In this document: in pieces, positions 1-49,995 of the stretch | Numbering within the stretch: the stretch's first letter is position 1 | Layout: every line of letters begins with the position of its first letter | Notes under the pieces: model-generated | What the model was told of the DNA's origin: nothing | The model's input: only the letters and a program-made list of their open reading frames with translations | The model's database searches: none | DNA from: a phage | Sequence record: PV467749.1 | Strand: one strand, 5' to 3' | DNA: 64,000 bases | Position numbers and translations under genes: made by a program

Positions 1-1806
<1,806 letters not shown>

Positions 1807-2554: not shown

Positions 2555-3244
2555 ATGTCTAATACTAATACTTCTTTTGAACGTATCAATGGTTATTCCT
2601 TTGATAAAATTCTAGGTTACTTCTGTGGCAAAAACGCCCTAGCATCTATCGCAATTAGTAAAATTGGTAATGTTAACGTGCGTGTTACTGGTGCAGTTGG
2701 TTCTTTCGCTGGTCTACAACGTTTCCTAAACACTGATGTAGCTGATGAAATCGTTGCATATCTAAACGAAAAAGGTATCATCCGTATCGATGGTACTCCA
2801 TTTGAAGCAGCAACTCTAGAAGCTGATTATAACGCTGCTTACGCTGCACAAACTAACGTTAAACGTATCGTTGATGTTGTTCAACAACGTGCAGTTATCA
2901 TCGCTACTTCCGAAATCGCTGGCAACGACGTTGAGCCATTTGCAGTTACTGGTTTTACCAACGCTGCTGACGGTATCCTAAGTGTTGGGTCTGTTGATAT
3001 CGCTAGTGCTTCAGTAGTTACTTTCCTCGTTGAACGTGCTAACGTATTTGATAAAGATATTCAATCTTTCCAAGGCGTTCCAAGTACTGAGATCGAAGAA
3101 GGCCGTCTACTAATTGATGACCTAACCGCAGTTCCACTACTCGCTAAAGATGGTGTTACTGAAGTTGTTCTACGTTCCCAAGCTGCTGATGCTGCTGGTG
3201 ACTTCGGTATCAAACTATTCAAATTCATCCCAGCGATGGTTTAA
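2555..3244 (+). CDS. putative virion structural protein, paralog B
   Basis: RBS AGGGGGA 7 nt upstream of ATG; paralog of 1940..2539; followed by strong terminator. Confidence 0.7.
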   Translation: MSNTNTSFERINGYSFDKILGYFCGKNALASIAISKIGNVNVRVTGAVGSFAGLQRFLNTDVADEIVAYLNEKGIIRIDGTPFEAATLEADYNAAYAAQTNVKRIVDVVQQRAVIIATSEIAGNDVEPFAVTGFTNAADGILSVGSVDIASASVVTFLVERANVFDKDIQSFQGVPSTEIEEGRLLIDDLTAVPLLAKDGVTEVVLRSQAADAAGDFGIKLFKFIPAMV

Positions 3245-4575: not shown

Positions 4576-4583
4576 TATTTATA
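4576..4583 (-). promoter_or_regulatory. T4-type late promoter TATAAATA
   Basis: Exact TATAAATA on minus strand about 60 nt upstream of ATG at 4517. Confidence 0.6.
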
Positions 4584-5874: not shown

Positions 5875-8800
5875 TTACCAGGTGAAGAATCCGTTATTAA
5901 CGGCTGCTGTACTTTTCTCATGAATACCAATATCCATATCCAGAATACCAAAAATGTTTTCTAATTTTTTAGTTAGAACTATTTCTTCCATTTTCTCTGT
6001 ATCAAATGGTAGTTCTAGGAACCATTCAGGTAGATATTCCACACAGTCAATTGGATAACCTACTGCTTTGATACCCATCGGGTTATCTTTTAAGTTACAT
6101 ACAATTACTTTTGTACCGTCAGTTACTTCAGGTACAGTTTTGTCATCATATACTTCACGTAGACGGTTCCATTGAATACCTGCTAATACATGACCAACTT
6201 TACATTTACCAGAAACTTCATATTCTGCTTCTAAGTTGGTATAGTTCTTAACAGTTTTCGGTGAACCCTTTTCGTGTACTGGCATGTCTTTAAATACCTC
6301 TTTAAAGTCACGTACACGCTGTTTAAGTTGAGCTTCAGACTCACCCACCAGCAATGCAATTAGAGTCTCTTCTAGGAAGTTCTGGATGTATTTTGGCGTA
6401 TCTGAACGTTTAATTTCAAGACCCATCGCTTTAATTTCACCAGGTTTACCATCAACATCTTTACGGAAACCATCTTCCCAGTACTTGAGAATTGCATAAC
6501 GCTTTTTCTTCAGGAATAGACCACGGGAACCGACCATCTCTAAGTCTGCACCAACAATCTTACCTTTCTCAATACCAGTATTGAACATTTCGTTCATGAA
6601 TGAAGGGAATGATTCACCAACTTCATCACCGATTTTGATATACATGTCAACGATTTCTTCTTTAGAAAGATTATATGGAATACCTTGTTCTTTCAGGTAA
6701 TGAGTTACACTGAAGTAAACGGAGTCAGTATCACCGTAAATCACAGAGCCACCTTGATGATTATAAACACCAGTAGTGATTTCATTGATACGGCTTGCCA
6801 TATGTTTAGTCATAGAACGACCAGTTAAGGTAACGGACTGACCTAAACGCTTATCAAAGAAACGTGAACCTTTGTTCAATAGTGCACCATATAGACTGTT
6901 TAGAAGAATCTTACGAATTTGCTGGTTCTGTTTCCAGAATGCACTTTGCTGTTTGAAGTAATTCTTATCTTCCGGTGCACAGAAAATACGACCATCTTTC
7001 AGTACTAAACCATTTTCCACAATGAGTTTTGCAACTTCTTCCCATTGACCTTTACCAATAGCAATACGTAATAGATAAACAGGATCATTGTCATGTAAGT
7101 TTGTACGGAACATTGTACCACTTGTGTAGTTAGATAGCAAAGGTTCAACCTTCTCAGAACCATTGAATTCCCACCCATCACTATACATGTGTTTGTAGTC
7201 GATTACCATTTTTTGTTGTGCTTTACGCTCAGAATACCATTGAGTAAGAATATCTGGAATTACACCATACTTAGACTTATCAAAAAGTGTTCCGTTAGCA
7301 CTTAGTACAATAGTACTGTCTTCAGCAAAGATAATATCATACAATTCTTTACCAGTTGCATTGAACGAACTACCATCTTCTAAATCAACAATCAAAGTTT
7401 TGTCAGATTTTTCATGAACCATTGTAAATTCTACAGCAGCAAATAAACCATGCCATGCAGCGGTCCAATCAGGTTCAAACGCTTTAGATTTGGATTTAGC
7501 TTTTTGCTCTTGTACTTTAGCAGCAAGATATGCATCAGTGTAGTCTTGACGAAGTTGTCCAAGAATACATTCAGTACTCATGCCAAGTGTACGTAGTACA
7601 GTTGGATACAATGAGTTAAAGTCTGTACATCCCAAATCGCTAACAAGGCCAAGAACTGGATCTTGAACCCATGCACCAGCAGCTTTTGCACTGATTTTCT
7701 CATCTTCTTCATCACCTTCTTCACCATAGTACTCCATCTCTGGATCTAACTCAAAATCATCCTTCGGTGCTTTGTTAAAAACAACTTCACCGCGTGAGTG
7801 AGCGAGGTTGATAATAGCAGTGTCGATTAGTGCAACAGAACCCATTGTGGTACTAATTAGTACACATTCTTTATGAGCAAGACGGTTATGCAGGTTGATA
7901 AAGTCACATTTAGCATCAATTTTCTTTAGAAGAATACTATCCTGCTTAGAATAACGCAAGAATGTAATGTAATCTTCTCGGTATAATTTATCCAAAGAAC
8001 CTTCATAGGATACTTTGTTTTCTTTAGTTACTTTTTCAGCAATATAATCTAGTTTGTACGACTGTTCAACTTGACCAGCATGTTTCTTATAAAGAGCAAG
8101 ATAGTCTAAGTGTACACGACCAATAAGATCATATGTTACTACAGTTTTACCAAAGTTATCAGCTTCACGAGCATTTGGTTTTTTATTCCACAAACACCAA
8201 CGAGCAGTAGTTGCTTCGTTGAAGATTTTCTTGGTACGGTTTACCATATATGGAATATCAAAGAATTCACTGTTCCAACCTGAAATTACATCAGAGTCAT
8301 CGATTAGACTAAAGAACTCCATAAACATTTCTTTCTCATCCGTATAAAGGATGACAGTACTGTTAGGGTCGTTAGTTTCTTCGTTTAACTGACGAACAAT
8401 ATCTTGTGCTTCGTACATTTCCATATCTGTTGGTGGCAAAGTAAGTACATAATCCTTACCAGTCCATGATTGATATAGAGAAATTGCAGTTACACGGTTG
8501 AATGGATCTGATGGTGGAGCATAACCAAACTTCTTATGGAAGTCGGTTTCGATATCGAAAAATGCTACGTTCAAATCCGGCGAACCTTTACCCATGTATT
8601 CTCTAGCCAACGTTTTGAAGGTAATGTTGCAATCACTTTCAAAAATACGCAGACCTTCATTTTTATGTTGCTCAACGCTTTTATTCATCTGTGATTGAGT
8701 TTCAAACTCCAAATGCTTTGCGTTAGTTCCATAAATTGTTTTGTGTTCACCAGTAGGACATTCAACATAATATTCATATACTGGGTCCAACTGACGTAGA

Positions 8801-8880
8801 ATACGTTTACCGTTTTTACGTTCTGCTACGTGCAAAATATCACCAGTACGTTTACGTTCCATATAAGCATCGATATACAT
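5875..8880 (-). CDS. DNA polymerase, family B (T4 gp43-like) with 3'-5' exonuclease domain
   Basis: Exo motif FFDIETD and polymerase motif VIYGDTDSVYF; 1001 aa; AAAGGAA RBS. Confidence 0.95.
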   Translation of the reverse strand: MYIDAYMERKRTGDILHVAERKNGKRILRQLDPVYEYYVECPTGEHKTIYGTNAKHLEFETQSQMNKSVEQHKNEGLRIFESDCNITFKTLAREYMGKGSPDLNVAFFDIETDFHKKFGYAPPSDPFNRVTAISLYQSWTGKDYVLTLPPTDMEMYEAQDIVRQLNEETNDPNSTVILYTDEKEMFMEFFSLIDDSDVISGWNSEFFDIPYMVNRTKKIFNEATTARWCLWNKKPNAREADNFGKTVVTYDLIGRVHLDYLALYKKHAGQVEQSYKLDYIAEKVTKENKVSYEGSLDKLYREDYITFLRYSKQDSILLKKIDAKCDFINLHNRLAHKECVLISTTMGSVALIDTAIINLAHSRGEVVFNKAPKDDFELDPEMEYYGEEGDEEDEKISAKAAGAWVQDPVLGLVSDLGCTDFNSLYPTVLRTLGMSTECILGQLRQDYTDAYLAAKVQEQKAKSKSKAFEPDWTAAWHGLFAAVEFTMVHEKSDKTLIVDLEDGSSFNATGKELYDIIFAEDSTIVLSANGTLFDKSKYGVIPDILTQWYSERKAQQKMVIDYKHMYSDGWEFNGSEKVEPLLSNYTSGTMFRTNLHDNDPVYLLRIAIGKGQWEEVAKLIVENGLVLKDGRIFCAPEDKNYFKQQSAFWKQNQQIRKILLNSLYGALLNKGSRFFDKRLGQSVTLTGRSMTKHMASRINEITTGVYNHQGGSVIYGDTDSVYFSVTHYLKEQGIPYNLSKEEIVDMYIKIGDEVGESFPSFMNEMFNTGIEKGKIVGADLEMVGSRGLFLKKKRYAILKYWEDGFRKDVDGKPGEIKAMGLEIKRSDTPKYIQNFLEETLIALLVGESEAQLKQRVRDFKEVFKDMPVHEKGSPKTVKNYTNLEAEYEVSGKCKVGHVLAGIQWNRLREVYDDKTVPEVTDGTKVIVCNLKDNPMGIKAVGYPIDCVEYLPEWFLELPFDTEKMEEIVLTKKLENIFGILDMDIGIHEKSTAAVNNGFFTW

Positions 8881-8962: not shown

Positions 8963-9268
8963 TTAGTAATCGTCATCTGCTTGTGGCAAATTGTTAGTAA
9001 CACTTAGGATAGTTTCGATGTTATCGAGTTTGTTTTGTTTATCAAAGTAATCGCCTTTGTAGATACGTTGAGCGGCTTGTTTGATATCGGATGCATCAAT
9101 ACCTAGTTCATCAGAGATGGAACTAATGAAATCTGCATAGGATGCTTTGGTATCGTCAATAAAAGTAAGTTGTACTACTGCGTTGTTTAGTGCATCACCT
9201 AGACGTTTACGTTGTTCATCATTTAGGTCACGAATTTCAACTTTAACTTCTTTTTTAGCTTTTGCCAT
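8963..9268 (-). CDS. hypothetical protein (101 aa)
   Basis: ATG with GGAGAAG RBS; no recognisable motif. Confidence 0.6.
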   Translation of the reverse strand: MAKAKKEVKVEIRDLNDEQRKRLGDALNNAVVQLTFIDDTKASYADFISSISDELGIDASDIKQAAQRIYKGDYFDKQNKLDNIETILSVTNNLPQADDDY

Positions 9269-11118: not shown

Positions 11119-11427
11119 CTATAGCAAGTCGTTTTCCATATCGTCAAGAACAGAATCAACGATGTTCGCTGCTATCTTCTTAGGCATCTTGAACCACTCG
11201 GTGTTAGGTTGCCTTACTGCGTTCATTTGTTTTAGTCTTTTGTGAATTTCTTTCTCTGCTAAACGTGCATCTTCAAAGTGTACTTCATGGTATACCACAA
11301 AATCTCTAAAAGGTGTAGCAGTTTGATATGTCCTTAAACGTTCTGTCATTTCAGATTTACTGGTAAATCCTATCTTAACATAATCAGGCCACGCATCATT
11401 TACTATAACATAACATATCTGTGACAT
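11119..11427 (-). CDS. stand-alone GIY-YIG-like (T5orf172-type) nuclease domain protein
   Basis: ICYVIVNDAWPDYVKIGFT...R...Y fits GIY-YIG/T5orf172 pattern; start chosen at ATG with GGAGA RBS (track ORF starts 15 nt upstream). Confidence 0.65.
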   Translation of the reverse strand: MSQICYVIVNDAWPDYVKIGFTSKSEMTERLRTYQTATPFRDFVVYHEVHFEDARLAEKEIHKRLKQMNAVRQPNTEWFKMPKKIAANIVDSVLDDMENDLL

Positions 11428-11466
11428 AGAAAATATCTCCATCAGTAATATGAAGATATTTATTAA

Positions 11467-14298: not shown

Positions 14299-14306
14299 TA
14301 TTTATA
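14299..14306 (-). promoter_or_regulatory. T4-type late promoter TATAAATA for major capsid gene
   Basis: ttcagttcTATAAATAatatcatact about 45 nt upstream of ATG at 14254. Confidence 0.7.
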
Positions 14307-15507: not shown

Positions 15508-15515
15508 TATTTATA
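15508..15515 (-). promoter_or_regulatory. T4-type late promoter TATAAATA for scaffold gene
   Basis: aaaaaTATAAATAtttg about 48 nt upstream of ATG at 15460. Confidence 0.65.
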
Positions 15516-26724: not shown

Positions 26725-27756
26725 TTATAGTGATCTGTAAATTTGGATTAGAAGATTTTTATCGAACATAGGTGAATCAATTTCCATGATTTGTTGTAAC
26801 ACAATCTCATCAACTGACTCAGTACTTTCAAAGCTTTCACCATCTTCAATAAGTTCTTTGATACTTTGCTTGCTAGTAACAACGTTAAACTCACGAATGT
26901 TATAAAGTTTAGTAAAAGTATCACGAATAAAACTAATCTCATCAGTAGTGATAGCAATATCAACTTGAACCTTTGAAATAGTATTGTCTTGAAGATAATA
27001 ACTTGGATCTGTTAATAGTTCTGAAAGTGTAAATGTTCTATATTTTGGTGCTTCTGACCAAGAATGGAAAGTTGGTTCTTTACCATGTTCTAAAATCATC
27101 ACACCTCTTGCATCATCCCATGTATCAGAAAAGTTATGTGGGAAACAGTTACCTGTGTAAATTACACGAGTTCCTTTGGATGTTGTTTTTGCTTGTCTCT
27201 TGTGGAAATGCCCACTAAAAACATACTCACAACCACCAAAAGAACCTTCAGTCTCTTTACCATGATCTGGCATCTCAACCATTTTATTGAGCAAGTAGCC
27301 AGGTAACTCTAAGTGACCAAAAACATACTTACTTTTAAGTTGAGGTAGAACTTTGTATTCATCTTCAATCATAAATGGAATGAAAGTACAATCATCAAAT
27401 GTTGTGATTTCATTAATGAACTCGATGTTCTCATAAACTTGTGCCATATTAATACTAGTAATGTCACGTTTATTTTTATGATACATGTCATGGTTCCCAA
27501 CTAAGAAGTAAACCTTATCAAAGTTGTCATTTAGTAATTGTAGAATTTGTAAACCATAGTTTAATGTTTGAATGTTAATATTACTGCGGTTATGGAAGTA
27601 ATCTCCCATAAACACGCATACAGTAATACCATTTTTCTTAGCAAGTTCAATCATAAACTTGATGAAGTTCAAACAATCTTCGTTGTGCTGCTTGCTGTTA
27701 TTCTTTAATCCTAAATGAATATCAGTAAATGTAATTGCTTTATCAAATAGAGCCAT
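26725..27756 (-). CDS. recombination/repair nuclease subunit, SbcD/Mre11-like phosphoesterase (T4 gp47-like)
   Basis: N-terminal FTDIHLG and GDYFH, GNHD phosphoesterase motifs; start moved from TTG to ATG (MALFDK) with AAAGGAAA RBS. Confidence 0.9.
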   Translation of the reverse strand: MALFDKAITFTDIHLGLKNNSKQHNEDCLNFIKFMIELAKKNGITVCVFMGDYFHNRSNINIQTLNYGLQILQLLNDNFDKVYFLVGNHDMYHKNKRDITSINMAQVYENIEFINEITTFDDCTFIPFMIEDEYKVLPQLKSKYVFGHLELPGYLLNKMVEMPDHGKETEGSFGGCEYVFSGHFHKRQAKTTSKGTRVIYTGNCFPHNFSDTWDDARGVMILEHGKEPTFHSWSEAPKYRTFTLSELLTDPSYYLQDNTISKVQVDIAITTDEISFIRDTFTKLYNIREFNVVTSKQSIKELIEDGESFESTESVDEIVLQQIMEIDSPMFDKNLLIQIYRSL

Positions 27757-28582
27757 CTTCGTTTTTCCTTTCAATCATGTTCATTTCAATTTCGATTTGA
27801 CGAGTGTGTGATGGTGTAAAACCATGCATCTCAAGTAAATCGTCTCGGATGTTACGAACATTTTTCTCACTATTAAGAATCGAACGGAAACTATTGTTAA
27901 CGAACGAAGTATAGTAAGAGAAAGGATTCAACTGTACTGCTGGTTTATCTTTTTTGTAAAGAATACTCTCTTTAAAGAGAAGTGCGTTTTTAACTAATTG
28001 TATTCTGGCATCACCCATCATTTCATCCAAATATGTATAGTTTCTATAGTTGGATTTGTGTGAGATTTCCTCTGCCAGTTTAATGAACATTTTACCTAGT
28101 TCATTAGTGATTTTACCATGAACAGTGCTGAATTCTCCGTCTTCAAGATCACCTTTCCAGTGAGAACGAACGACTTCGTACAGAATACCTTCTTCATCTA
28201 CAATGTAATGTTTGAATGGTTCAAAATTAACTCTTGTATCTGCTGGGATATGTTCATCGGTAATTACACGAATAACCACCTCATCGATAGGTACATCAGT
28301 CAGTACTAAATTGTGCTCATCTGCGTATTCCTTCGCTTTCTTCGCACTCATACCTTCTTTTTCACGAATTGCATCAAGCATTTCATTGTTGAGACGTTTA
28401 ATACGTGCTGCTTTAGCTTTATCTAAAAGTTCTGCTGTGATTTCGGATTCATCAAAAACGATATAATCGTACATACTGTAGCACTTATCAAGTAACCAGC
28501 AATATGAGATTTTACTTTTTTGTATCTCACGAAGTAAATCAGCATTGTTAAGATACTTTTTACGCTTCGGCCTATTTGTCAT
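27743..28582 (-). CDS. late-transcription sigma factor (T4 gp55-like) with large internal insertion
   Basis: KYLNNADLLREIQKSK vs T4 gp55 KYNYVNNKELLQAIIDWK; NPFSYYTSFVNNSFRSILNSEKN vs [23 protein letters not shown]; start at ATG (MTNRPKRKK) with GGAGAG RBS. Confidence 0.8.
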   Translation of the reverse strand: MTNRPKRKKYLNNADLLREIQKSKISYCWLLDKCYSMYDYIVFDESEITAELLDKAKAARIKRLNNEMLDAIREKEGMSAKKAKEYADEHNLVLTDVPIDEVVIRVITDEHIPADTRVNFEPFKHYIVDEEGILYEVVRSHWKGDLEDGEFSTVHGKITNELGKMFIKLAEEISHKSNYRNYTYLDEMMGDARIQLVKNALLFKESILYKKDKPAVQLNPFSYYTSFVNNSFRSILNSEKNVRNIRDDLLEMHGFTPSHTRQIEIEMNMIERKNEDGSI

Positions 28583-28639
28583 TATTTCAACTCTCCATGT
28601 TTTAAATCCAATAGGTACATTCCTTGTACCATCAATGTT

Positions 28640-28668
28640 ATTATAGCACCAAAAACGTCTTTGTCCCA
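28640..28668 (-). promoter_or_regulatory. sigma70-like promoter with extended -10 (TGCTATAAT) upstream of gp55-like gene
   Basis: Minus strand gggacaaagacgtttttggTGCTATAAT; same GTGCTATAAT -10 context as rnh promoter. Confidence 0.45.
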
Positions 28669-28670
28669 CG

Positions 28671-28678
28671 TATAAATA
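28671..28678 (+). promoter_or_regulatory. T4-type late promoter TATAAATA for baseplate operon
   Basis: cacgTATAAATAcatc about 35 nt upstream of ATG 28714; divergent from gp55 promoter. Confidence 0.65.
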
Positions 28679-28713
28679 CATCAAATGTTCCCTTCTTATG
28701 GAGAATCAAAAAG

Positions 28714-34703: not shown

Positions 34704-34716
34704 ATATTTCAGTACT

Positions 34717-34724
34717 ATAAATAA
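34717..34724 (+). promoter_or_regulatory. T4-type late promoter TATAAATA for endolysin
   Basis: atttcagtacTATAAATAataatgagg about 17 nt upstream of ATG 34741. Confidence 0.7.
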
Positions 34725-39987: not shown

Positions 39988-40023
39988 AATCAAATGAATG
40001 AACGAATTATATGGAGTCCAAAA

Positions 40024-43000
40024 ATGACTAATAATTTTAAGTTTCAACCTACACAGATGGCTGAAGCAGTACAGAAGAAGCTTTTCATAAAAAGATTGCC
40101 TGAGTGGATGCAAGGCTTAGAAGATATTCAGAAAGTCAGTGATGATGTTATCCAACAATGGTTTAATCCGGCTGAAAACGAATTAGTTGACGGCTACATT
40201 GGTGACATGGGTTCTCCGGCAGCAGCAGGGAACATCTTCTTACACGAGTCAACAGTCGCACGTCAACTATATCAGTTGTCCACTGCGTATGTCTCAAGAA
40301 ATGATGACTCCAGCATTCGTTCAATTCAATTTTATGATGATCTAGTTGGCTATATGAATCATTACGGGGCACTAACCGAAAATGAAAGCCGTTTGTTTAA
40401 TGGTAAGTTCTATTCATGGACCCCACCAATTAACCCTAACAAAATGAACAACTACAGTTCATATCTATGGGATTCCAAGAATAGCTATAATATCGCAACT
40501 CCAGATTATATTGTAATGGAACGTGGTGCAGAAAATGGAAACACTTGGTCACTACAAAACTTCTGGTACACATTAGGTGAAACTTTAGAAGATGGTACAA
40601 TCCTAACTGAAGAACTAATGCAAGATTCCCGTTTTGTTCGTGCTCGTGCTCCAATTATCGAATACAATAAAAATATCGAACTAATGAACTACGGTACTAA
40701 ATTCCGTGGGACAGTTGATTTGTTCTCTGATATTATTAAACCTGAAGATATCGTACAAAAAGATATTAACAGCGGTATACGTATTGATGGTATTATTCCA
40801 CAAGATGGTATGCGTATTCTTTTCACCAGTATTGGTAACAATGGTGAAAACAACCGAATTTATAAAGTATATGTTAAACGTATGCAAGATGGAACACGTG
40901 TGTATGGTCTAGCATTAGACCCAGACGAAGAATCTGAAAGCCGTCCGAGTGGTGAACCACAAGATGGTGACGTAGTTCTTATTATCAAAGGTAATGAATT
41001 TGGTAACAGTTCCATGTATTGGGACGGTTCTCATTGGATTCAAGCACAGTCTAAAACTTCTGTGAACGTATTTCCACAATTCCAATTGTATGACCGTAAT
41101 GGTGTTAAACTAAACAACACTACTACCTATCCATCAAGTACTTTTACTGGTTCTTCATTATTTGGTTTTAAAATTAACTATAATTATGCAACCGATAGCG
41201 TTTATGGTTATAACATTGAACTGGGTGATTACAATTATTACACCTATGAGAATTTCCTACAATCAACTCGTTATACCTACGAGCATTTGGGTGTGGAAGT
41301 TGAAATTGATGGACTATATTACTATAACGTAATTGGTGAAGGTAATACAATGAACCTAGAAACTGATTGGGTTCGTAGTACTGAATACTCCAAACAATAT
41401 GTTAAACAAACTCCACAGGTTGAACGTACAGTAATGTTCCGCGTGTTCAGTACTGTTTATGACATGGAAAGTTTCAAAGATCCAGTTGAAGGAATGTATG
41501 CTTATGTAATTGAAGTTGACAGAACTTATCAATATTACAAAGCAGAACGTGAAACATATCTTGATTGGCATGTTATCGTTGGTGATGGGGTACAAAGCGT
41601 TAAGTACAATCATACATTTGAATTGGCACAAAAAGTACTAGATAATTCTGATGATATTATCGAACTAGTTGTTGATGGTGTGGAAATAAAAGAATACACC
41701 AAAACTGTAGTTAATAATCAAGTACAAAGTATTACAATTGATAGCTCTGTTGATTTGGATGAAGATTCTGTTGTACAAATAAGAACTTATAGTAGCACTA
41801 TCACTCCTAATAAAGAGTTGGGTGCATATGAAGTTCCAATTAACCTACAAAATAACCCATATAATTCAAACATTGAATACATCAATCAAGGTGATTACAC
41901 CCTGCACTTCCAAGATATTATTCAAAAGAATATTACATCTGGTTCTGCTGATGACTTTAACAATTACGAAGAACGTTTGGCTGCTGGTTTGGTTAATAAT
42001 GGTGTAGGCACTAAAATTATTCAAAACGAAGCGTCCATGTTACCACTAATGGCACATACCGCTAATGAAGATATTGATTTGTTTGAATCAATCATGTTTA
42101 TGCAAGCAGAATACTTCCGCTTCATTAACAAGTTCAACACTCAAATGCTTCGTTTGTATGAAGAAGACCCAAGTGCTTTTCTTGGTAATAGTGCATCAAA
42201 CATCGTAGATGCGATTCTAACAGCTATTAATATGGGACGTGATAGTTCATTCCCATTCTACTATGACAACGTTGCAAGCACTGCTGGGTTTATTCGTGCA
42301 TTTGTCCCACCAACTCCACAGTTCTTGGGTATTTTGCAAGCTTATACACCACAAAAAGCAACATTCTTAACTGCTGGTAGTAAATCTAGCTGTTATAATA
42401 TCAGTCATACTGGTGTTATTTCAAAAGCATACCGTGTTATCAATGGTGTTGATAAAATGGATGACGTAGTTTTTGAATTGGAAAATCGTATCTTTAATAG
42501 TATTGACCTTACTTTCAAGGATATTGATTATAAACCAGTACTAAACAGTGAAGACCTATTCCCAACTCCATATTTCACTGGTACTGATTATAGTGCAGAA
42601 GAAAAGAAAACTCTATTACTACGTGGTTACATTAACTTCACAGCAACCAATGGTATTAGTAACAGTACTCATGATTATGATGCAAATAACTGGAGAACTT
42701 GGAACTATACTGGTAGTTATTATGTTGTTGATGGTCAACGTACTGAAATTCCTGCTCGTGGTTCATGGCGTGCAATCTATACTGACCAATATGGCACATA
42801 TCGTCCAGCAACCCATCCGTGGGAAATGATGGGCTTCTCTCAACGTCCTACTTGGTGGAACCAAGAATACGAACCAACCGCAGTTCAAGTTGGTGAACGT
42901 GAGGGTGATGTTGTTTATGTGTATGAAGCACTAGTAATGAATGAAAATGGTGATTTGGTCCCAAGTGGATTGTGGGATATTGATGGTACTATCGGTGACA

Positions 43001-46000
43001 GCAGCACTGGTACTATTTTGTCCGGTGAACGCCGTGGTCAATATGACAAATACAAGCGTTTCGGTGTACAGCCATTTAAAATCACTAAGACTGGCGAGAA
43101 AACCAGTACTGGTATTGATATTTGTGAAGTTGAGTATATTGCACCTGAAGTTTTAGGTCTTGTTAGTGGTAATTTAGATCATCGTGCAGAACCGTGGGCT
43201 TATGGTGACATGGGTGACATGGAATTCACTTACATGAACACTGCGATGTTTGCTTATGACCAAATGCTTCTTCTATACAAAGCAAAACCAGCACAGTTTG
43301 CAAACTATTACTGGGATACCCGTAATGATAACCTTAAACCAGTTTATACTGATGGTTCACAGTTCCTTTATGGTGAAACCCGTAAGCGTCTAAACTTTGA
43401 CAGTGCTACATTAGTACATGGTGAGAAAAATACCCGTACTATCGGTTATCAAATGTTTGTTAGTGACTATTTGATGTATCAGAATAAGAACATTACCACC
43501 AAATACGGTGACGTTGTTCGTTCTTCTTATGTCAATGTCGCTCACAAAATTGGTGGCTTTACTAAAGCAGACCAATTGACATTCACTGCTAAATCTTTCG
43601 GTTTGATTTCACAAGAAAACCAAACTATCGGTCTAGTTCGTTCCAATAACATTCGCGATGAGCAAATGAGTGCAGTAAAAATTACTTGGAATGGTAGTGC
43701 ATATCAAATTGATGGTTATGATTTAGTTGGTGCTAAATTTAAATATAAAATTCCAGTTAAAAATGGAAGAAAAGTAACTCTTAAATTGGAAGACAGAACT
43801 GTTGTTCATTACAATGAATGGAAATCTGAAGGTACATTAGAATATGGTAAAATATTCAATACATACCAAGAAGTTTATACTTTCATTTGTGGATATGGTG
43901 AATATCTAAAAGAACATGGCTGGATTTTTGAAGATGTAAATGATAGTGGTGCTCAACAAGACTGGACAACTATTGCTAAAGACTTTGTTATTTGGAGTCA
44001 GAATAATTTAAGTACTGGTGAGTTCATCTCCTGTACTCCAAGTGCAGCTAATGCTAAATTTGGTGCAGATTTTGGTTCAGTTCAATCTGTTACACAGAAC
44101 AGTGGTGGTGTTTGGTCACTACTCGATGATGAAAACCAAGGTATCCGTCAATATGAAATCGAAACTTCGCGTATCGGTAACGTATTCACAGTGAGAACTA
44201 CATCTGAATCACAAAAACGTATGGCGTTGATTCGTTTGAGCCTAAGTTCATATGAACACGCAGTTGTTTTTGATGATAAAACTATCTTTGGTGATTACAT
44301 TTACCAACCAACTTATGGTGCTATTCAAGAATTGATTAAAATGTATGGTTACATTACTGGGGCATGGACTGGTCGCCTACAAGCACCTGGTTTCATTATC
44401 CTAGAAGCAGGAACTTTACCATCATTTGAAAAATTAGTAACTGATTTTGAATTATATTATAATAGTGAAACTCCTGTGAGTGATGTTCAGCTTCAAGAGT
44501 TATCAAATCACTTGATTGGCTATCAAACTCGTGATTATCTACAACGTATGATTAGTAGTGATGTTAGTCGTGTTGATTTCTATAAAGGATTCATTCATGA
44601 CAAAGGTACTAACCAAGTAATGGAAAAAGTACTACGCGTTTCTAAATCTTACGACACTGATGAATATAAAGCACTACAGGAATGGGCATTTAAGATTGGC
44701 ACTTATGGTAATATCAATGGTAAGAAAAATCTACAATTTAAACTAATCAATGACCAATTTAAACAACAACCACAGATGGTTTCGTTTGATGTTAATGCTA
44801 CATCAAATGGTACTGGTAATGGTATTGTTTATTACGGTGAACAAGGGGTTGACTCACGCTGGATTACTCGTCCAAATGGTAAGTTTTCATTCCCAATGCG
44901 TAGTGGAAGAAGTGAGAATATCCAACTTCCAGACATTGGCCCAGTAACACTAGATGAAATTTCATACGTTACTAAAGATTTCAGTACTGCATATAATGAT
45001 CGTATCAATTATATGAATAACAGTGGTGAAATACCAGATTCTGTATGGATGTTTAAAGATGGTAATGATTTGTGGAATATTTTCGAACTAGTAGACACTG
45101 AAGTTGAGATGCTCTCTATCGTTCCAATTGAAAATACCGATGTATATGCAGAACAATTCTGTAAAGTAACTCTAAGTGATGATATCCCACTAAATGATGG
45201 TGATTATTATTACTTTGTTGATGAAACTAACTTTATGCCAGATACATTGACTATAGAAAGTCAATATTATACTGCGGGTAATGACCCTAGAGTTATGGTA
45301 GTTCCGTTTGACACTTCAATAACTATTGACTTCACTGATCCTGATACTCGCCCACGCTTGTATCGTTATGTTTCACGATTCAGTACTGAAGAGATGCGTC
45401 AGGAATACATTGACAGAAAATATAGTTTTAAAGCTCCACAAAGTACTTTGTTTGACCGCCCAACCACATATGATGAGCGTACTAACATTACTGCGTTGTA
45501 CCTAAACGTGTTTGACCCAATCAACGGTGTTATTCCTGGTGCAGCGATGCAGAACGTTACCTACACATCTCCAGTTGACCCAGCACAATACAACAGCAAT
45601 GGTGAATTGATTCAAGCATGGGGTGCTGATAAAGTTGGTCAGGTTTGGTGGAACACCAGCACTGCTTTCTACTTAGATTACACTCGTGCAATCTATGATG
45701 CTGATGGTAATGTGGATGTTGATGCAACAAATGAATATAAACGTTATAACTGGGGCAGATTGCTACCGCACAGTACTGTTGATGTTCTTGAATGGGTATG
45801 TTCGCCAGTGGAACCATATAACTGGGACAAATACTGTAAAGACGTTGCTAACAAAAATAAAAACAATACTATGTACCTACCAAGCGGAACCGCATTGGAA
45901 GATAATTATAGTACGTTCTTAGAATATGATAGCACAACTGATACTTATGTTACAAAATACTATTTCTGGGTTCGTGATACAATCTATGTACCACCATTGC

Positions 46001-49000
46001 ATTCCAGAACTAAATCTTGTACTGATATTGCTCGTATTATTAAAGAACCAGCACAGCTTAACATTCCTTGGTTTGCACCAATCAATGAAAGCTCGTTCAT
46101 TCTAAGTAATATGCAATTTGAAGTCAACGATGACACAAGTATTTTAACTGTTTCTTATTACATGGATAATACTGAAGTTATTAAACATGACCAGTATCAA
46201 TTATGTAAAGAAGGTGATAGCTATAACTTCAATCCATCAATCTGGACTTCTATGTGGAATTCTATGATTGGTCAAGAAACTACTGAATCAGGAACTGTTA
46301 TTGATTTACTATATCCTTTAGTACCAAACGGTTTAGGTTCTAATAAGACTTGGTTCCAAGATGTAATTGAAGCTCGTAGAAACTTTGTAGAAAGTGCAAA
46401 TAACTATTATCGCTCACAGAATATAACAACTAACACTGTTCTAATGGACGAAGTGTTTAATGTTAAAACTACTGAAGTTAACCCGAATGAAGTATCATAT
46501 CGTGTACTAACTTACAATAGTGAATTAGTCATTGCACCTGAAAGTGACAAGTTCAAAGAAAACGACGCAGTACTAGTAAGTACTAGTGGTGTATTACCTA
46601 ACCCACTATCAACTAGCTCTGTATATTTTGTGCATATTGATGCTAATGGTTATATTCATCTAATGAATAGTCCATCAAGTGCTGGTAGTGTGGTTACCAT
46701 TACATTGGAAAACCGTGGTGAAGGTCAACAGAAAATGATTAAACAATCAGACTATGTTGAAGCACTAGGAACTTCATTGGACATGACCCAGTACTGGTCA
46801 CTAGCAGATTGGTATGATATTGGTTACGATAAAAATACTGCATATACACAAGAATCCAGCCTAGAAGATGCAAACACTAAGAACTATCAAGTTGGTGACA
46901 TTATCAGAATTACAGATGTTGATGGCATCTGGACATTGTACATTAAAGCACAATCACGTGATTCAGTTTACTGGAAAGCAATTGGTCGTGAAAATAGTAC
47001 AGTTGAATTGAATGATATGTTATACGCTGACTATACAGTTCGTGATGCTAATGGTTCGTTGAGTAATCGTGAGATTAACGTTCGTAAAGCACTAGCTTTA
47101 TTGAAGAACTCATTCGACTTACATCAGAGTGAAATTGTGTTTGATATGGTTAAGTATGTTCACGTAGAACAAAGCGTTGTTGATTGGGTATTCAAAACAT
47201 CTTACATTTATATTGTAGGTTTAGAACAATCATTAGTACAGAACTATTCCAACGACAACTTGATTAATCAAATCGTTGAGTACTTTGAAGAAGTTAAACC
47301 ATATAGAACTAAGATTCGTTCCCAGATTGAACAGAAAACATCAGATGATGATTTAATTAAAGGTTTGTGTAATGATTTAGATCCTAATGGCTATATATTT
47401 GCAGATGGGACTTGGGTTAAAACGGAAAAAGACATTTGGGATTATGAATATGCTCAATTCAATGAGGTAACTCAACGTTGGGAGCAAGTTGGTGAATTGC
47501 CAAGTGATTTCGTAACACCTAATCGCCGTTTCCAAGAAATTGATGTTATCATGCACTACGACAACACTCAATGTAAACCAAATGATAATTTGGCAAGTGT
47601 TGATGTATTGGAAGAAGTGAATAAGAAATATCAATCTAATGCACAAGATGTTGTTAGTAATTTTGAATTACAACGTTACAAATATACATTCCCAGAATAC
47701 AGTGATGAAGATTTCGACCTATTGGTTGCTTATCAGATGCAATTGTATTACCCAGAATTGAACGTAACTCTAGGGATTGCTTACGGTGTTAACCAATGGT
47801 ATGCAGACCATGCAGATGATTTGGTAGCAACCGCAGAATTCACAGAAACGTTGAATCGTGTATATAAAGAATCAACACAAAATGAAATGTTTAATGACGT
47901 AAATCATTACGTTCAGTATAACACACTCTCTAACCGTTTGAAATTGTACACAGGTGCAGATGATGAAGTAATTCATGATGAAGTTGGATGTGGATTTAGT
48001 GGGTTAACCTATGATGATAATCCAAGCACCAGACTACCGTTTGGTTATGCATCCAGTACTGATTATAACTTTGGTTACTTTGAAGTTAGTAGTGAGTTGT
48101 ATAAAAAGTATGTTTCTTTAATTAAAGAAAACAATACTACTGCAACTGATGATGAAGTTAGAATTATACTTGAAGTTGAATATGGTGTTTATTCATATCG
48201 CCATGTAGATGAAGATGGAAATCAACGATTCTACAATGACGCAATTCATGTATTGTCCGGTATGCGTGGTTTGTATGACAAAGATGCTACCGACCATTAT
48301 GAAAAGGCTGAAGAAATACTAAGTAGAATGCCTATTGATATTCATGCATTTACTATGATGCCACGAAAATATGTTTATGTTAATGTTAATGGTGTATACG
48401 AGAGTATCCCAGATGACCAAAGCATTGATGATTTCATGGAAGACAAATTCATAACTGACGGTCAACTAGTTCAATTGGCAGAAATAAATCTTGATGACTT
48501 ACCTCTTGATAGAAATAACCCAATGTACAGTGATTATCAGCACATCCTAGATAGCATCACCGATGCTAAGTACTACGATGATATGAATGCATTTGATAAC
48601 CTAGCACTTGAATCACAAACTTCCGAGTTAAAATGGGAAGTTGAAGGTGACGAAGTAGATCCGTACATAATCGACATTTCTGATATTAACCCATCAGGAA
48701 GAAAGATTGGTCAGATTCGCTTCACAGTTGATGGTTATGGATTCAATAGTGTTTCACTAGTTCAATTGAGAGACAATAGTAGATATAAAACTGAAGGTAT
48801 GGTTATTATCAACCCTTATAAAACAACAGAAGCAATTGTTAGTATTCCTTCTTACGCTAAGATTGAAAATGATATTAGTAAATCATACAGTAAGTATGAT
48901 GAAAAATACTTCTATAAAATTAAATCAATTGTTAGTGATACAGAAGCTGAAGTAATTGACAATACCCTATCTGATGGTGATAAGGTTATGATATTCACAA

Positions 49001-49995
49001 CTGATGGTGAAGATTATGTGAGATACCAAAACAATGCATGGGAAACCATCTTGAGTGTATCAAAAATCAAAACTGACACCACACCAACCTTGTACACAGT
49101 AAGAAACACTGCGAACGGAACTGTAGAACTACTAGATAGTACTGGAGTTGTACTTCGTTATGATAACATCACTAAACAACAACAAAATGAACCAGCAATA
49201 CCTCTAGCATTGAACATCGTTCGTATTAGAACCTTTGCTGATCCAGAATTCTTGGTTGATGGTGTTAAGTTGTATGAAACAAATAGAAACTATGCTATCG
49301 ACGCAATGAACTATGAAGTATTCTACGACACAACACTATACGGTGGTTCTTATAATGATGGAATTACACCAGATGACGTTGATGTTTGGGTAGTGTCTAA
49401 CGAGATATTTGAAGTTGATGGTGTTACCATTGATAACGGATATAACTTACCAATTACTGGTGCAGGTGTTCTTAGTGAGTTAGTGAGAACCAAAATGACT
49501 GATAGTGTGGAAATTAACGTGTTCGAGTATGATGTTGGTATTATTCAACCAGTACTGAATACTGAAGGGGTATGGGAATATGCATATCCACTAGTTAGTG
49601 ATACATATATTGGTGTAGTTGGTGGAACAGTAACTAACATTACTGCTATCAGTGAAGAAAATGCTACTTATGTTTCACAACCAGATTCAGTTAGTCCATA
49701 TAGTGTTACTAATAATGTTCTATCTGGTGCTGGTGCAAGTATGAATGATATTATTTCTCTTGGTTTTGAAAAAGTTGAAGTACGATTTGCAAATAACTTA
49801 CTCCGTGGGGTAATGTATAGTGCAGAACACGACTTTAAAGAGAATGTGACATATTCATTTAATGGCTTGAACTTAGGTAAAGTTAATTTACTAAAACGTT
49901 ATAGTGTTAACAGTTATCCAATCGAACTATCTGTTTACTCCGATAGTTTGCAAATAAGTGGTAATGACATTAAAAATCTATTAGAAGTTAAATAA
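40024..49995 (+). CDS. giant virion-associated protein (~3,320 aa), probable baseplate/tail component
   Basis: Uninterrupted ~10-kb ORF; start chosen at ATG (MTNNFKF) with GGAG RBS and CATAAATA late-like box about 36 nt upstream; track ORF starts 30 nt earlier without RBS. Confidence 0.85.
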   Translation: MTNNFKFQPTQMAEAVQKKLFIKRLPEWMQGLEDIQKVSDDVIQQWFNPAENELVDGYIGDMGSPAAAGNIFLHESTVARQLYQLSTAYVSRNDDSSIRSIQFYDDLVGYMNHYGALTENESRLFNGKFYSWTPPINPNKMNNYSSYLWDSKNSYNIATPDYIVMERGAENGNTWSLQNFWYTLGETLEDGTILTEELMQDSRFVRARAPIIEYNKNIELMNYGTKFRGTVDLFSDIIKPEDIVQKDINSGIRIDGIIPQDGMRILFTSIGNNGENNRIYKVYVKRMQDGTRVYGLALDPDEESESRPSGEPQDGDVVLIIKGNEFGNSSMYWDGSHWIQAQSKTSVNVFPQFQLYDRNGVKLNNTTTYPSSTFTGSSLFGFKINYNYATDSVYGYNIELGDYNYYTYENFLQSTRYTYEHLGVEVEIDGLYYYNVIGEGNTMNLETDWVRSTEYSKQYVKQTPQVERTVMFRVFSTVYDMESFKDPVEGMYAYVIEVDRTYQYYKAERETYLDWHVIVGDGVQSVKYNHTFELAQKVLDNSDDIIELVVDGVEIKEYTKTVVNNQVQSITIDSSVDLDEDSVVQIRTYSSTITPNKELGAYEVPINLQNNPYNSNIEYINQGDYTLHFQDIIQKNITSGSADDFNNYEERLAAGLVNNGVGTKIIQNEASMLPLMAHTANEDIDLFESIMFMQAEYFRFINKFNTQMLRLYEEDPSAFLGNSASNIVDAILTAINMGRDSSFPFYYDNVASTAGFIRAFVPPTPQFLGILQAYTPQKATFLTAGSKSSCYNISHTGVISKAYRVINGVDKMDDVVFELENRIFNSIDLTFKDIDYKPVLNSEDLFPTPYFTGTDYSAEEKKTLLLRGYINFTATNGISNSTHDYDANNWRTWNYTGSYYVVDGQRTEIPARGSWRAIYTDQYGTYRPATHPWEMMGFSQRPTWWNQEYEPTAVQVGEREGDVVYVYEALVMNENGDLVPSGLWDIDGTIGDSSTGTILSGERRGQYDKYKRFGVQPFKITKTGEKTSTGIDICEVEYIAPEVLGLVSGNLDHRAEPWAYGDMGDMEFTYMNTAMFAYDQMLLLYKAKPAQFANYYWDTRNDNLKPVYTDGSQFLYGETRKRLNFDSATLVHGEKNTRTIGYQMFVSDYLMYQNKNITTKYGDVVRSSYVNVAHKIGGFTKADQLTFTAKSFGLISQENQTIGLVRSNNIRDEQMSAVKITWNGSAYQIDGYDLVGAKFKYKIPVKNGRKVTLKLEDRTVVHYNEWKSEGTLEYGKIFNTYQEVYTFICGYGEYLKEHGWIFEDVNDSGAQQDWTTIAKDFVIWSQNNLSTGEFISCTPSAANAKFGADFGSVQSVTQNSGGVWSLLDDENQGIRQYEIETSRIGNVFTVRTTSESQKRMALIRLSLSSYEHAVVFDDKTIFGDYIYQPTYGAIQELIKMYGYITGAWTGRLQAPGFIILEAGTLPSFEKLVTDFELYYNSETPVSDVQLQELSNHLIGYQTRDYLQRMISSDVSRVDFYKGFIHDKGTNQVMEKVLRVSKSYDTDEYKALQEWAFKIGTYGNINGKKNLQFKLINDQFKQQPQMVSFDVNATSNGTGNGIVYYGEQGVDSRWITRPNGKFSFPMRSGRSENIQLPDIGPVTLDEISYVTKDFSTAYNDRINYMNNSGEIPDSVWMFKDGNDLWNIFELVDTEVEMLSIVPIENTDVYAEQFCKVTLSDDIPLNDGDYYYFVDETNFMPDTLTIESQYYTAGNDPRVMVVPFDTSITIDFTDPDTRPRLYRYVSRFSTEEMRQEYIDRKYSFKAPQSTLFDRPTTYDERTNITALYLNVFDPINGVIPGAAMQNVTYTSPVDPAQYNSNGELIQAWGADKVGQVWWNTSTAFYLDYTRAIYDADGNVDVDATNEYKRYNWGRLLPHSTVDVLEWVCSPVEPYNWDKYCKDVANKNKNNTMYLPSGTALEDNYSTFLEYDSTTDTYVTKYYFWVRDTIYVPPLHSRTKSCTDIARIIKEPAQLNIPWFAPINESSFILSNMQFEVNDDTSILTVSYYMDNTEVIKHDQYQLCKEGDSYNFNPSIWTSMWNSMIGQETTESGTVIDLLYPLVPNGLGSNKTWFQDVIEARRNFVESANNYYRSQNITTNTVLMDEVFNVKTTEVNPNEVSYRVLTYNSELVIAPESDKFKENDAVLVSTSGVLPNPLSTSSVYFVHIDANGYIHLMNSPSSAGSVVTITLENRGEGQQKMIKQSDYVEALGTSLDMTQYWSLADWYDIGYDKNTAYTQESSLEDANTKNYQVGDIIRITDVDGIWTLYIKAQSRDSVYWKAIGRENSTVELNDMLYADYTVRDANGSLSNREINVRKALALLKNSFDLHQSEIVFDMVKYVHVEQSVVDWVFKTSYIYIVGLEQSLVQNYSNDNLINQIVEYFEEVKPYRTKIRSQIEQKTSDDDLIKGLCNDLDPNGYIFADGTWVKTEKDIWDYEYAQFNEVTQRWEQVGELPSDFVTPNRRFQEIDVIMHYDNTQCKPNDNLASVDVLEEVNKKYQSNAQDVVSNFELQRYKYTFPEYSDEDFDLLVAYQMQLYYPELNVTLGIAYGVNQWYADHADDLVATAEFTETLNRVYKESTQNEMFNDVNHYVQYNTLSNRLKLYTGADDEVIHDEVGCGFSGLTYDDNPSTRLPFGYASSTDYNFGYFEVSSELYKKYVSLIKENNTTATDDEVRIILEVEYGVYSYRHVDEDGNQRFYNDAIHVLSGMRGLYDKDATDHYEKAEEILSRMPIDIHAFTMMPRKYVYVNVNGVYESIPDDQSIDDFMEDKFITDGQLVQLAEINLDDLPLDRNNPMYSDYQHILDSITDAKYYDDMNAFDNLALESQTSELKWEVEGDEVDPYIIDISDINPSGRKIGQIRFTVDGYGFNSVSLVQLRDNSRYKTEGMVIINPYKTTEAIVSIPSYAKIENDISKSYSKYDEKYFYKIKSIVSDTEAEVIDNTLSDGDKVMIFTTDGEDYVRYQNNAWETILSVSKIKTDTTPTLYTVRNTANGTVELLDSTGVVLRYDNITKQQQNEPAIPLALNIVRIRTFADPEFLVDGVKLYETNRNYAIDAMNYEVFYDTTLYGGSYNDGITPDDVDVWVVSNEIFEVDGVTIDNGYNLPITGAGVLSELVRTKMTDSVEINVFEYDVGIIQPVLNTEGVWEYAYPLVSDTYIGVVGGTVTNITAISEENATYVSQPDSVSPYSVTNNVLSGAGASMNDIISLGFEKVEVRFANNLLRGVMYSAEHDFKENVTYSFNGLNLGKVNLLKRYSVNSYPIELSVYSDSLQISGNDIKNLLEVK

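Follow-up and report, generated by a model that had tools for sequence, protein, structure and literature searches.

With only region 2, the T4 late sigma factor gp55 is the textbook example of a minimal sigma factor, and the way in which a DNA-loaded sliding clamp activates it is a classic link between replication and transcription. In primary sigma factors, a lineage-specific domain of variable length lies between the N-terminal pocket helix and the first helix of region 2. According to the structure of the T4 open complex (PMC7892883), gp55 holds the -9 adenine in a pocket built by N13 and H95; Y97 provides stacking for the -12 adenine and T99 a hydrogen bond to the -8 adenine, and the walls of the pockets also include L54, R57, and F86. 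Contact with the template strand is made through R114, and three acidic residues (E70, D74, and E77) bind gp55 to the beta-prime clamp helices of RNA polymerase (RNAP). Proteins of Rak2-like jumbo phages (CBB_244; Atu_ph07 gp694) have already been named gp55-like late sigma factors (PMC5259590, PMC6102473). Here, we analyze a gp55-like gene in a 64,000-nucleotide (nt) stretch of phage DNA (sequence record PV467749.1; the whole stretch is called the window). A preliminary description had proposed that this gene encodes a late sigma factor of the gp55 type interrupted by a large insertion. The sequence and profile matches, the fold, the synteny, and the conserved functional residues all support this proposal. 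The best explanation as a whole, to which we assign a probability of about 0.75, is that the protein is a gp55 orthologue of a long form that contains an inserted domain, reads promoters like T4 gp55, lacks the clamp tail, and acts by the mechanism proposed below.

Identity and distribution of the long-form protein

PHROG 12791 ('sigma factor for late transcription') covers the full gp55-like protein (E 9e-153), and PHROG 234, the T4-type family, aligns with residues 128-262 only (E 1e-16). A profile of 26 diverse homologues searched against the PDB matches T4 gp55 (7d7c_F, E 7e-7) in two pieces, with profile positions 3-26 falling on gp55 residues 3-26 and positions 151-245 on residues 23-116. 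The comparison of the family with T4 gp55 by hhalign gives a probability of 98% (E 3e-13). In the window, diverging baseplate genes lie upstream of the gp55-like gene, which is followed by genes for gp47-like and gp46-like nuclease subunits. The same order occurs in phage Hallingskeid and in a metagenomic member with 44% identity, and it echoes the order 55-47-46 of T4. Because of the PHROG matches, the profile matches to the PDB, and the shared gene order, the open reading frame (ORF) is identified at the sequence level as the phage's orthologue of T4 gene 55. Its predicted fold comprises a four-helix core like sigma region 2 and an extended H4-H5 helix-loop-helix. No meaningful Pfam match was found for the whole protein or for the insertion alone. 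With regard to the sigma-70 family, no Pfam region 2 model (Sigma70_r2 and related) matches, and regions 3 and 4 are not present. A single-sequence phmmer search against the PDB returned phosphotransferase system (PTS) enzyme I at E 0.05, a chance-level match that was discarded.

The window comes from a Rak2/121Q-like jumbo coliphage. Escherichia phage EC.P1 (PQ657772) has a protein of 100% identity, the SP27 version shows approximately 95% identity, and those of Erwinia and Klebsiella relatives show 70-80%. At E<1e-3, the long-form family counts 3377 representatives; at E<1e-30, it counts 333 clusters. A search of a 5.8-billion-protein collection with the full-length query returned 333 homologues at E<=0.001, with 45-82% identity across the 25 that were aligned. 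These matches indicate that the insertion is the mark of a large, catalogued subfamily (PHROG 12791) rather than a peculiarity of this phage. The protein does not differ in kind from the PHROG 12791 and Rak2-like gp55-like proteins, whose papers and annotations do not mention the inserted domain, and we found no paper that describes or analyzes the inserted domain of long-form gp55. Many GenBank records still label the gene hypothetical or misname it. What appears to be new here is thus the inserted domain, the gp55-like identity being already known from the literature and from PHROGs.

Among the 150 best family representatives, approximately 30 reach lengths of 445-889 residues because of intein-like insertions at two of the most highly conserved sites of the sigma core. 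The carriers are P0126, P0143, P0206, P0225, P0243, and about 25 others, none of them in the window. Site 1 (...NWRGY|C....GN|TYLDEM) lies in the RNAP-binding region and corresponds to window Y182/T183, and site 2 (KN|C...RN|C) lies inside the DNA-reading helix and corresponds to N230/S231. Some of these insertions have a LAGLIDADG-like domain; their Pfam intein matches are weak and below the curated cut-off.

Position and fold of the inserted block

The gp55-like ORF runs on the minus strand from an ATG at 28582 to a stop codon at 27743-27745, with a Shine-Dalgarno sequence, GGAG, 10 nt 5' of the ATG. A start at or near the equivalent of this ATG is used by 24 of the 25 aligned homologues. 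The mechanical ORF list also gives a longer version of 313 residues from a TTG at 28684. Some gene callers choose such an upstream start (P0001, 312 residues; the 313-residue TTG ORF), and BFVD holds a truncated entry of 134 residues, as might be expected if the extra length were due to a sequencing error, a misplaced start codon, or the fusion or overlap of two genes. However, the extra residues are internal, the frame is continuous and conserved at the identities given above, the ATG is the start preceded by the Shine-Dalgarno sequence, and the segment folds confidently. An annotation artefact is thereby refuted, and we give it virtually no probability. The alignment with gp55 homologues suggested in the preliminary description likewise shows that the extra length is neither a wrong start nor an overlapping gene.

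Three MAFFT modes (E-INS-i, L-INS-i, and G-INS-i) all align T4 NYVNNKELLQAI with window KYLNNADLLREI and open one gap of approximately 119 residues in the short forms; in the two iterative pair modes, the alignment resumes at T4 IDWK against window SHWK. A hidden Markov model (HMM) of long-form residues 2-28 matches the N-terminus of 26 of 28 short gp55s, with T4 scoring 11.6 bits against a best score of 9.2 among 5600 shuffled sequences. In the residue mapping, T4 Y10 and N13 correspond to window Y10 and N13, and T4 W23 corresponds to the invariant W142. Y10 and N13 are invariant in the short family and near-invariant in the long family, at equal distance from the start. The insertion point falls between I20 and I21 of T4 gp55, so that 'conserved segment 1' of gp55, the term of Geiduschek and Kassavetis (Y10 ... 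W142 here), is split by a block of 119 residues. The tyrosine and the tryptophan lie 13 residues apart in 91 of 120 short forms, and long forms have a spacing of 90-240 residues (mode 130-150). MAFFT, the motif HMM, and the residue mapping thus agree that the N-terminal motif (KKYLNNADLLREIQ) and the core are alignable with T4 gp55, as had been stated. The large internal block stands as well; its size was put at about 130 residues and is 119 (residues 21-139). Overall, the protein exceeds T4 gp55 by only 94 residues, since the C-terminal linker and clamp-binding motif are missing here.

A different reading of the same comparisons is that residues 1-123 were added in front of gp55, with the T4 motif represented by the strand KHYIVDEEGILYEVVRSHWKG (residues 124-144). 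The sole hhalign alignment is contiguous, from window 124-247 to T4 8-121, and the PHROG 234 match likewise begins at residue 128, both as this reading predicts. However, a gap of 119 residues is beyond what local aligners can open, and the three MAFFT modes and the motif HMM, with its 26 of 28 short forms and its margin over the shuffles, place the T4 motif at the long-form N-terminus. Y10 and N13 also coincide there, whereas the alternative path drops N13 onto unconserved positions. We consider such an extension quite improbable and conclude from the alignments that the extra residues form an internal block.

Structure prediction of the inserted segment, also suggested in the preliminary description, gave a confident fold. 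Residues 1-158 modeled alone reach a predicted local distance difference test (pLDDT) score of 93 and a predicted template modeling (pTM) score of 0.82. The predicted elements are a helix (13-25), strands (40-42, 104-107, 123-128, and 134-139), and a helical hairpin (50-76 and 80-89). In this model, the N-terminal helix and the insertion form one compact alpha+beta domain that is joined without a linker to core helix H1. Invariant residues of the domain and its junction are D39, I41, R60, R63, R105, F120, K124, S140, H141, W142, G144, G149, F151, and G156; C28, Y38, K81, H111, P113, and others are near-invariant. A metal site was considered because C28, H111, and H141 are conserved, and was rejected, as there is no CxxC and no fourth ligand. 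Because the block is a conserved, confidently folded domain, its predicted structure makes an added regulatory or interaction domain a reasonable proposal. Its net charge is -8 (-9 for the beta part), and this acidity makes a protein-contact module more likely than a DNA-binding one. When the insertion by itself (137 residues) served as the query against the 5.8-billion-protein collection, one fragment was returned, a result that says nothing about the domain outside gp55, since the family was apparently dropped by the word index.

The helical hairpin is the least conserved part of the domain, and it is missing in 'medium' homologues of 216-222 residues, which retain the beta core. These graded lengths, in which medium forms lack only the hairpin, raise the question of polarity. 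The long form could be ancestral, with T4-like and cyanophage gp55 having lost the domain and segment 1 being its remnant. Conservation of both flanks of the block in short forms (the Y10/N13 helix and W23) fits such a loss, as do the wide distribution and diversity of the long form and the uniform guanine plus cytosine (GC) content across the gene, which gives no sign of recent acquisition. However, other sigma region 2 domains (extracytoplasmic function (ECF) factors and others) have no such domain, and the direct role of N13 in T4 explains its retention without a remnant. We regard ancestral presence as a serious possibility with somewhat less than an even chance; it leaves the functional reading of the inserted domain unchanged.

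Promoter recognition and gene context

The residues through which T4 gp55 reads its promoter were located in the window protein. T4 N13 corresponds to window N13, which is kept in 24 of 26 long forms. F86, Y97, T99, H95, R114, and E70 of T4 correspond to F203, Y223, T225, F221, K240, and E187, respectively, each invariant in long forms; the H95 position is also phenylalanine in 9 of 28 short forms. The alignment thus indicates that the residues binding the flipped non-template bases and the template-strand contact are conserved or conservatively replaced. Among the further RNAP contacts, T4 D74 corresponds to D191 (aspartate in 13 of 26 long forms), and E77 corresponds to I194.

An ATAAATA motif has been reported for phages CBB and GAP32 (PMC5259590). 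In the window, all five TATAAATA motifs are intergenic, although non-coding DNA makes up 7.4% of the sequence. Four of them lie 18-48 nt 5' of same-strand genes, and the fifth lies 204 nt from the next listed start. The genes behind these sites include a major-head-like gene and the baseplate cluster. Similarly, 15 of 19 ATAAATA motifs are intergenic, and most (T)ATAAATA motifs are located within approximately 50 nt upstream of a same-strand gene, in most cases one for a structural protein. We consider the (T)ATAAATA sites to be candidate late promoters of the T4 type. The preliminary description had linked the insertion to an altered late-promoter architecture. That link is not supported: because the TATAAATA and ATAAATA motifs are intergenic ahead of same-strand genes and the base-contact residues are conserved, late-promoter recognition looks T4-like rather than altered.

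Coordinates are collected in Table 1. The gp55-like gene itself is probably transcribed earlier than the late phase, from the promoter-like site of sigma-70 type with an extended -10 that lies upstream of it; this site is consistent with expression by host RNAP before late genes. A small hairpin (28614-28630, minus strand) lies in the presumed 5' leader after this site. The start of the gp47-like ORF (TTG 27774 or ATG 27756) precedes the stop codon of the gp55-like gene, giving an overlap of approximately 14-32 nt that suggests translational coupling. Elsewhere in the window, a 107-residue ORF (11119-11442, minus strand) amid structural and replication genes has a T5orf172/MUG113 nuclease-like domain (Pfam E 3e-13) and is possibly what is left of a mobile element. 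Two adjacent paralogues (1940-2539 and 2555-3244, both plus strand) belong to PHROG 9326 (virion structural protein) and represent a tandem duplication. An ORF of 3333 residues (39994-49995, plus strand) lies downstream of the baseplate genes, and the copy in a relative is annotated as a virion structural protein.

Table 1. Positions in the window of the gp55-like gene, its parts, and promoter-like sites
Feature	Positions	Strand	Details
Long-form gp55-like late sigma factor, complete coding sequence	27743..28582	-	279 residues plus stop
N-terminal motif, residues 8-21	28520..28561	-	KKYLNNADLLREIQ; contains Y10 and N13; first half of T4 segment 1; MAFFT, motif HMM against shuffles, residue mapping
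Inserted block, residues 21-139	28166..28522	-	119 residues, missing from T4-type gp55
Variable helical hairpin in the insertion, residues 50-89	28316..28435	-	Secondary structure; conservation 0.49 vs 0.67 for the beta part; P0251 and P0239 sequences
Sigma region 2-like core, residues 142-252	27827..28159	-	From W142 (T4 W23); putative pocket F203, F221, Y223, T225; template-strand contact K240; RNAP contact E187
Last helix, residues 259-275	27758..27808	-	Counterpart of H5 in the helix-loop-helix of T4 gp55; DGSI alone follows; AlphaFold2 (AF2) secondary structure
Sigma-70-type promoter-like site, extended -10	28640..28667	-	GGGACA, 16 nt, TATAAT preceded by TG as TGcTATAAT; promoter scan, 10/12 matches, consensus only
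TATAAATA motif	4576-4583	-	
TATAAATA motif	14299-14306	-	
TATAAATA motif	15508-15515	-	
TATAAATA late-promoter-like motif	28671..28678	+	Divergent intergenic region, 36 nt upstream of structural gene starting 28714; presumed target
TATAAATA motif	34716-34723	+	

Clamp partners, proposed mechanism, and comparison with known systems

The gp55-like protein stops 18 residues past the conserved PSxTR motif, ending in ...RKNEDGSI. The C-terminal linker and clamp-binding motif of T4 are missing, and an HMM of the T4-family clamp-binding motif gave 0 matches in 267 long-form proteins. This absence bears on T4-style activation and not on the sigma fold, and membership in the wider gp55 family stands. 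The C-terminal tails of long forms are heterogeneous; some proteins have none, and others have acidic-aromatic (LFPFDD, MFDWGGE) or AT-hook-like (KRGRKPK, RRGRPPK) tails. Examples of these tail motifs among long-form homologues outside the window are P0212, P0240, P0219, P0134, and P0258. The tail of the family looks like an exchangeable tethering module that sits where T4 has its clamp-binding tail.

The search for gp33 and gp45 partners, called for across the full genome in the preliminary description, was run on window ORFs and on 14 ORFs of Hallingskeid. PHROG scans of the window ORFs tested, and of the 14 Hallingskeid ORFs, which lie near the clamp loader and polymerase genes, revealed no recognizable gp33 or gp45 (approximately 105 kb of this relative was examined). 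The authors of the CBB study likewise detected neither protein in CBB (PMC5259590). In the same search, a 243-residue ORF near the polymerase gave no PDB match, and a 106-residue ORF ending in KDLFLGY proved to be a GroES/gp31-like co-chaperonin. For a 101-residue ORF beside the DNA polymerase (8963-9268, minus strand), no link to gp33 was found. This ORF has a weak match to PHROG 639 ('transcriptional regulator', E 1.6e-7) and no PDB or Pfam match; it is kept in 74 phage records, nearly all Rak2-like, and is annotated as hypothetical. A clamp loader is present in Hallingskeid. The window DNA polymerase (5875-8880, minus strand, 1001 residues) ends in NNGFFTW, and its Hallingskeid counterpart ends in NNGFFSW; this tail resembles a sliding-clamp-binding peptide. 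Because a clamp loader is present and the polymerase has this clamp-binding-like tail, a divergent sliding clamp probably exists in these phages.

These observations bear on whether the inserted domain is a built-in co-activator that replaces gp33 and gp45, binding RNAP or another partner and making late transcription independent of the DNA-loaded clamp. If this were true, late transcription in Rak2-like phages would be wired unlike that of T4 despite the same promoter motif. The C-terminus without a clamp-binding motif and the lack of gp33 and gp45 homologues in the window, the 14 ORFs, and the CBB paper would be expected in such a case. However, some distant long forms keep clamp-motif-like acidic-aromatic tails (LFPFDD, MFDWGGE), so insertion and tail can coexist; the clamp loader and the NNGFFTW polymerase tail make a divergent clamp probable; and the domain does not resemble gp33 in fold. 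Full replacement is, in our estimation, unlikely.

Our analysis favors the long-form orthologue with T4-like promoter reading, for which we propose the following mechanism. The protein would bind host RNAP at the beta-prime clamp helices and read (T)ATAAATA as T4 gp55 does. The N-terminal helix would fold back on the core and complete the -9 pocket beside F221; because N13 must reach this pocket, the helix would act as sigma region 1.2. The chain would then leave the core, form the 119-residue domain, and re-enter at W142. With the helix in the -9 pocket, the domain would exit and re-enter the core at the site, between regions 1.2 and 2.1, that the non-conserved region occupies in primary sigma factors. 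The domain would project from the outer face of the clamp, where it could contact RNAP itself or a further co-activator, and it may make up for the missing clamp-binding tail in this clade. Because the domain runs without a linker into H1 and the whole-protein model has a pTM of 0.78, domain and core are probably fixed relative to each other.

An acidic domain rigidly attached beside the DNA-binding pockets could also be autoinhibitory or regulatory, similar to sigma 1.1, or a docking site for an anti-sigma factor, with the protein inactive until a signal such as replication. The net charges of the insertion and its beta part (-8 and -9) are in line with such a role, and Geiduschek and Kassavetis speculated on a relation of segment 1 to sigma 1.1. 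However, the charge is modest compared with that of sigma 1.1, the domain has no structural similarity to sigma 1.1, and no candidate partner was found. An inhibitory role is improbable, to about the same degree as full replacement of gp33 and gp45.

Several points weigh against the long-form gp55 interpretation with T4-like promoter reading. The single local path of hhalign puts the T4 N-terminal motif on residues 124-143 rather than at the N-terminus. No similarity could be detected between the inserted domain and gp33, sigma 1.1, the sigma non-conserved region, or any solved structure, and the placement of the domain on RNAP is argued from topology alone. By number, TATAAATA is no more frequent in the window than expected (5 versus 7.5), and only the placement of the motifs is striking. 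Finally, of the acidic residues that contact the clamp helices, E77 is replaced by a hydrophobic residue in nearly all long forms and only half of them retain D74, so that the RNAP interface may differ from that of T4.

The long-form subfamily offers a natural experiment on the acquisition of regulatory inputs by minimal sigma factors, and it is relevant to the timing of late genes in jumbo phages, many of which are of therapeutic interest. This widespread subfamily keeps the promoter-reading residues and TATAAATA, and the clade analyzed here adds a predicted rigid domain of no recognizable fold and loses the clamp tail. Compared with the window protein, T4 gp55 (PDB 7D7C/7D7D) is without the 119-residue folded block; it has a C-terminal linker and a clamp-binding motif of the (S/T)LDFL type, both missing from the window protein. 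E77 of T4 gp55 is hydrophobic and H95 is phenylalanine in the window protein. T4 gp55 works with gp33 and gp45, whereas neither partner is recognizable beside the window protein in the ORFs examined. T4 gp33, the late co-activator, is an accessory module of gp55-directed transcription, as the insertion would be. However, the two share no fold or sequence similarity, and gp33 binds the beta flap, far from the expected site of an N-terminal domain of region 2. The likeness to the sigma-70 non-conserved region, which has the same topological position between regions 1.2 and 2.1 as the insertion, is one of position and not of homology.

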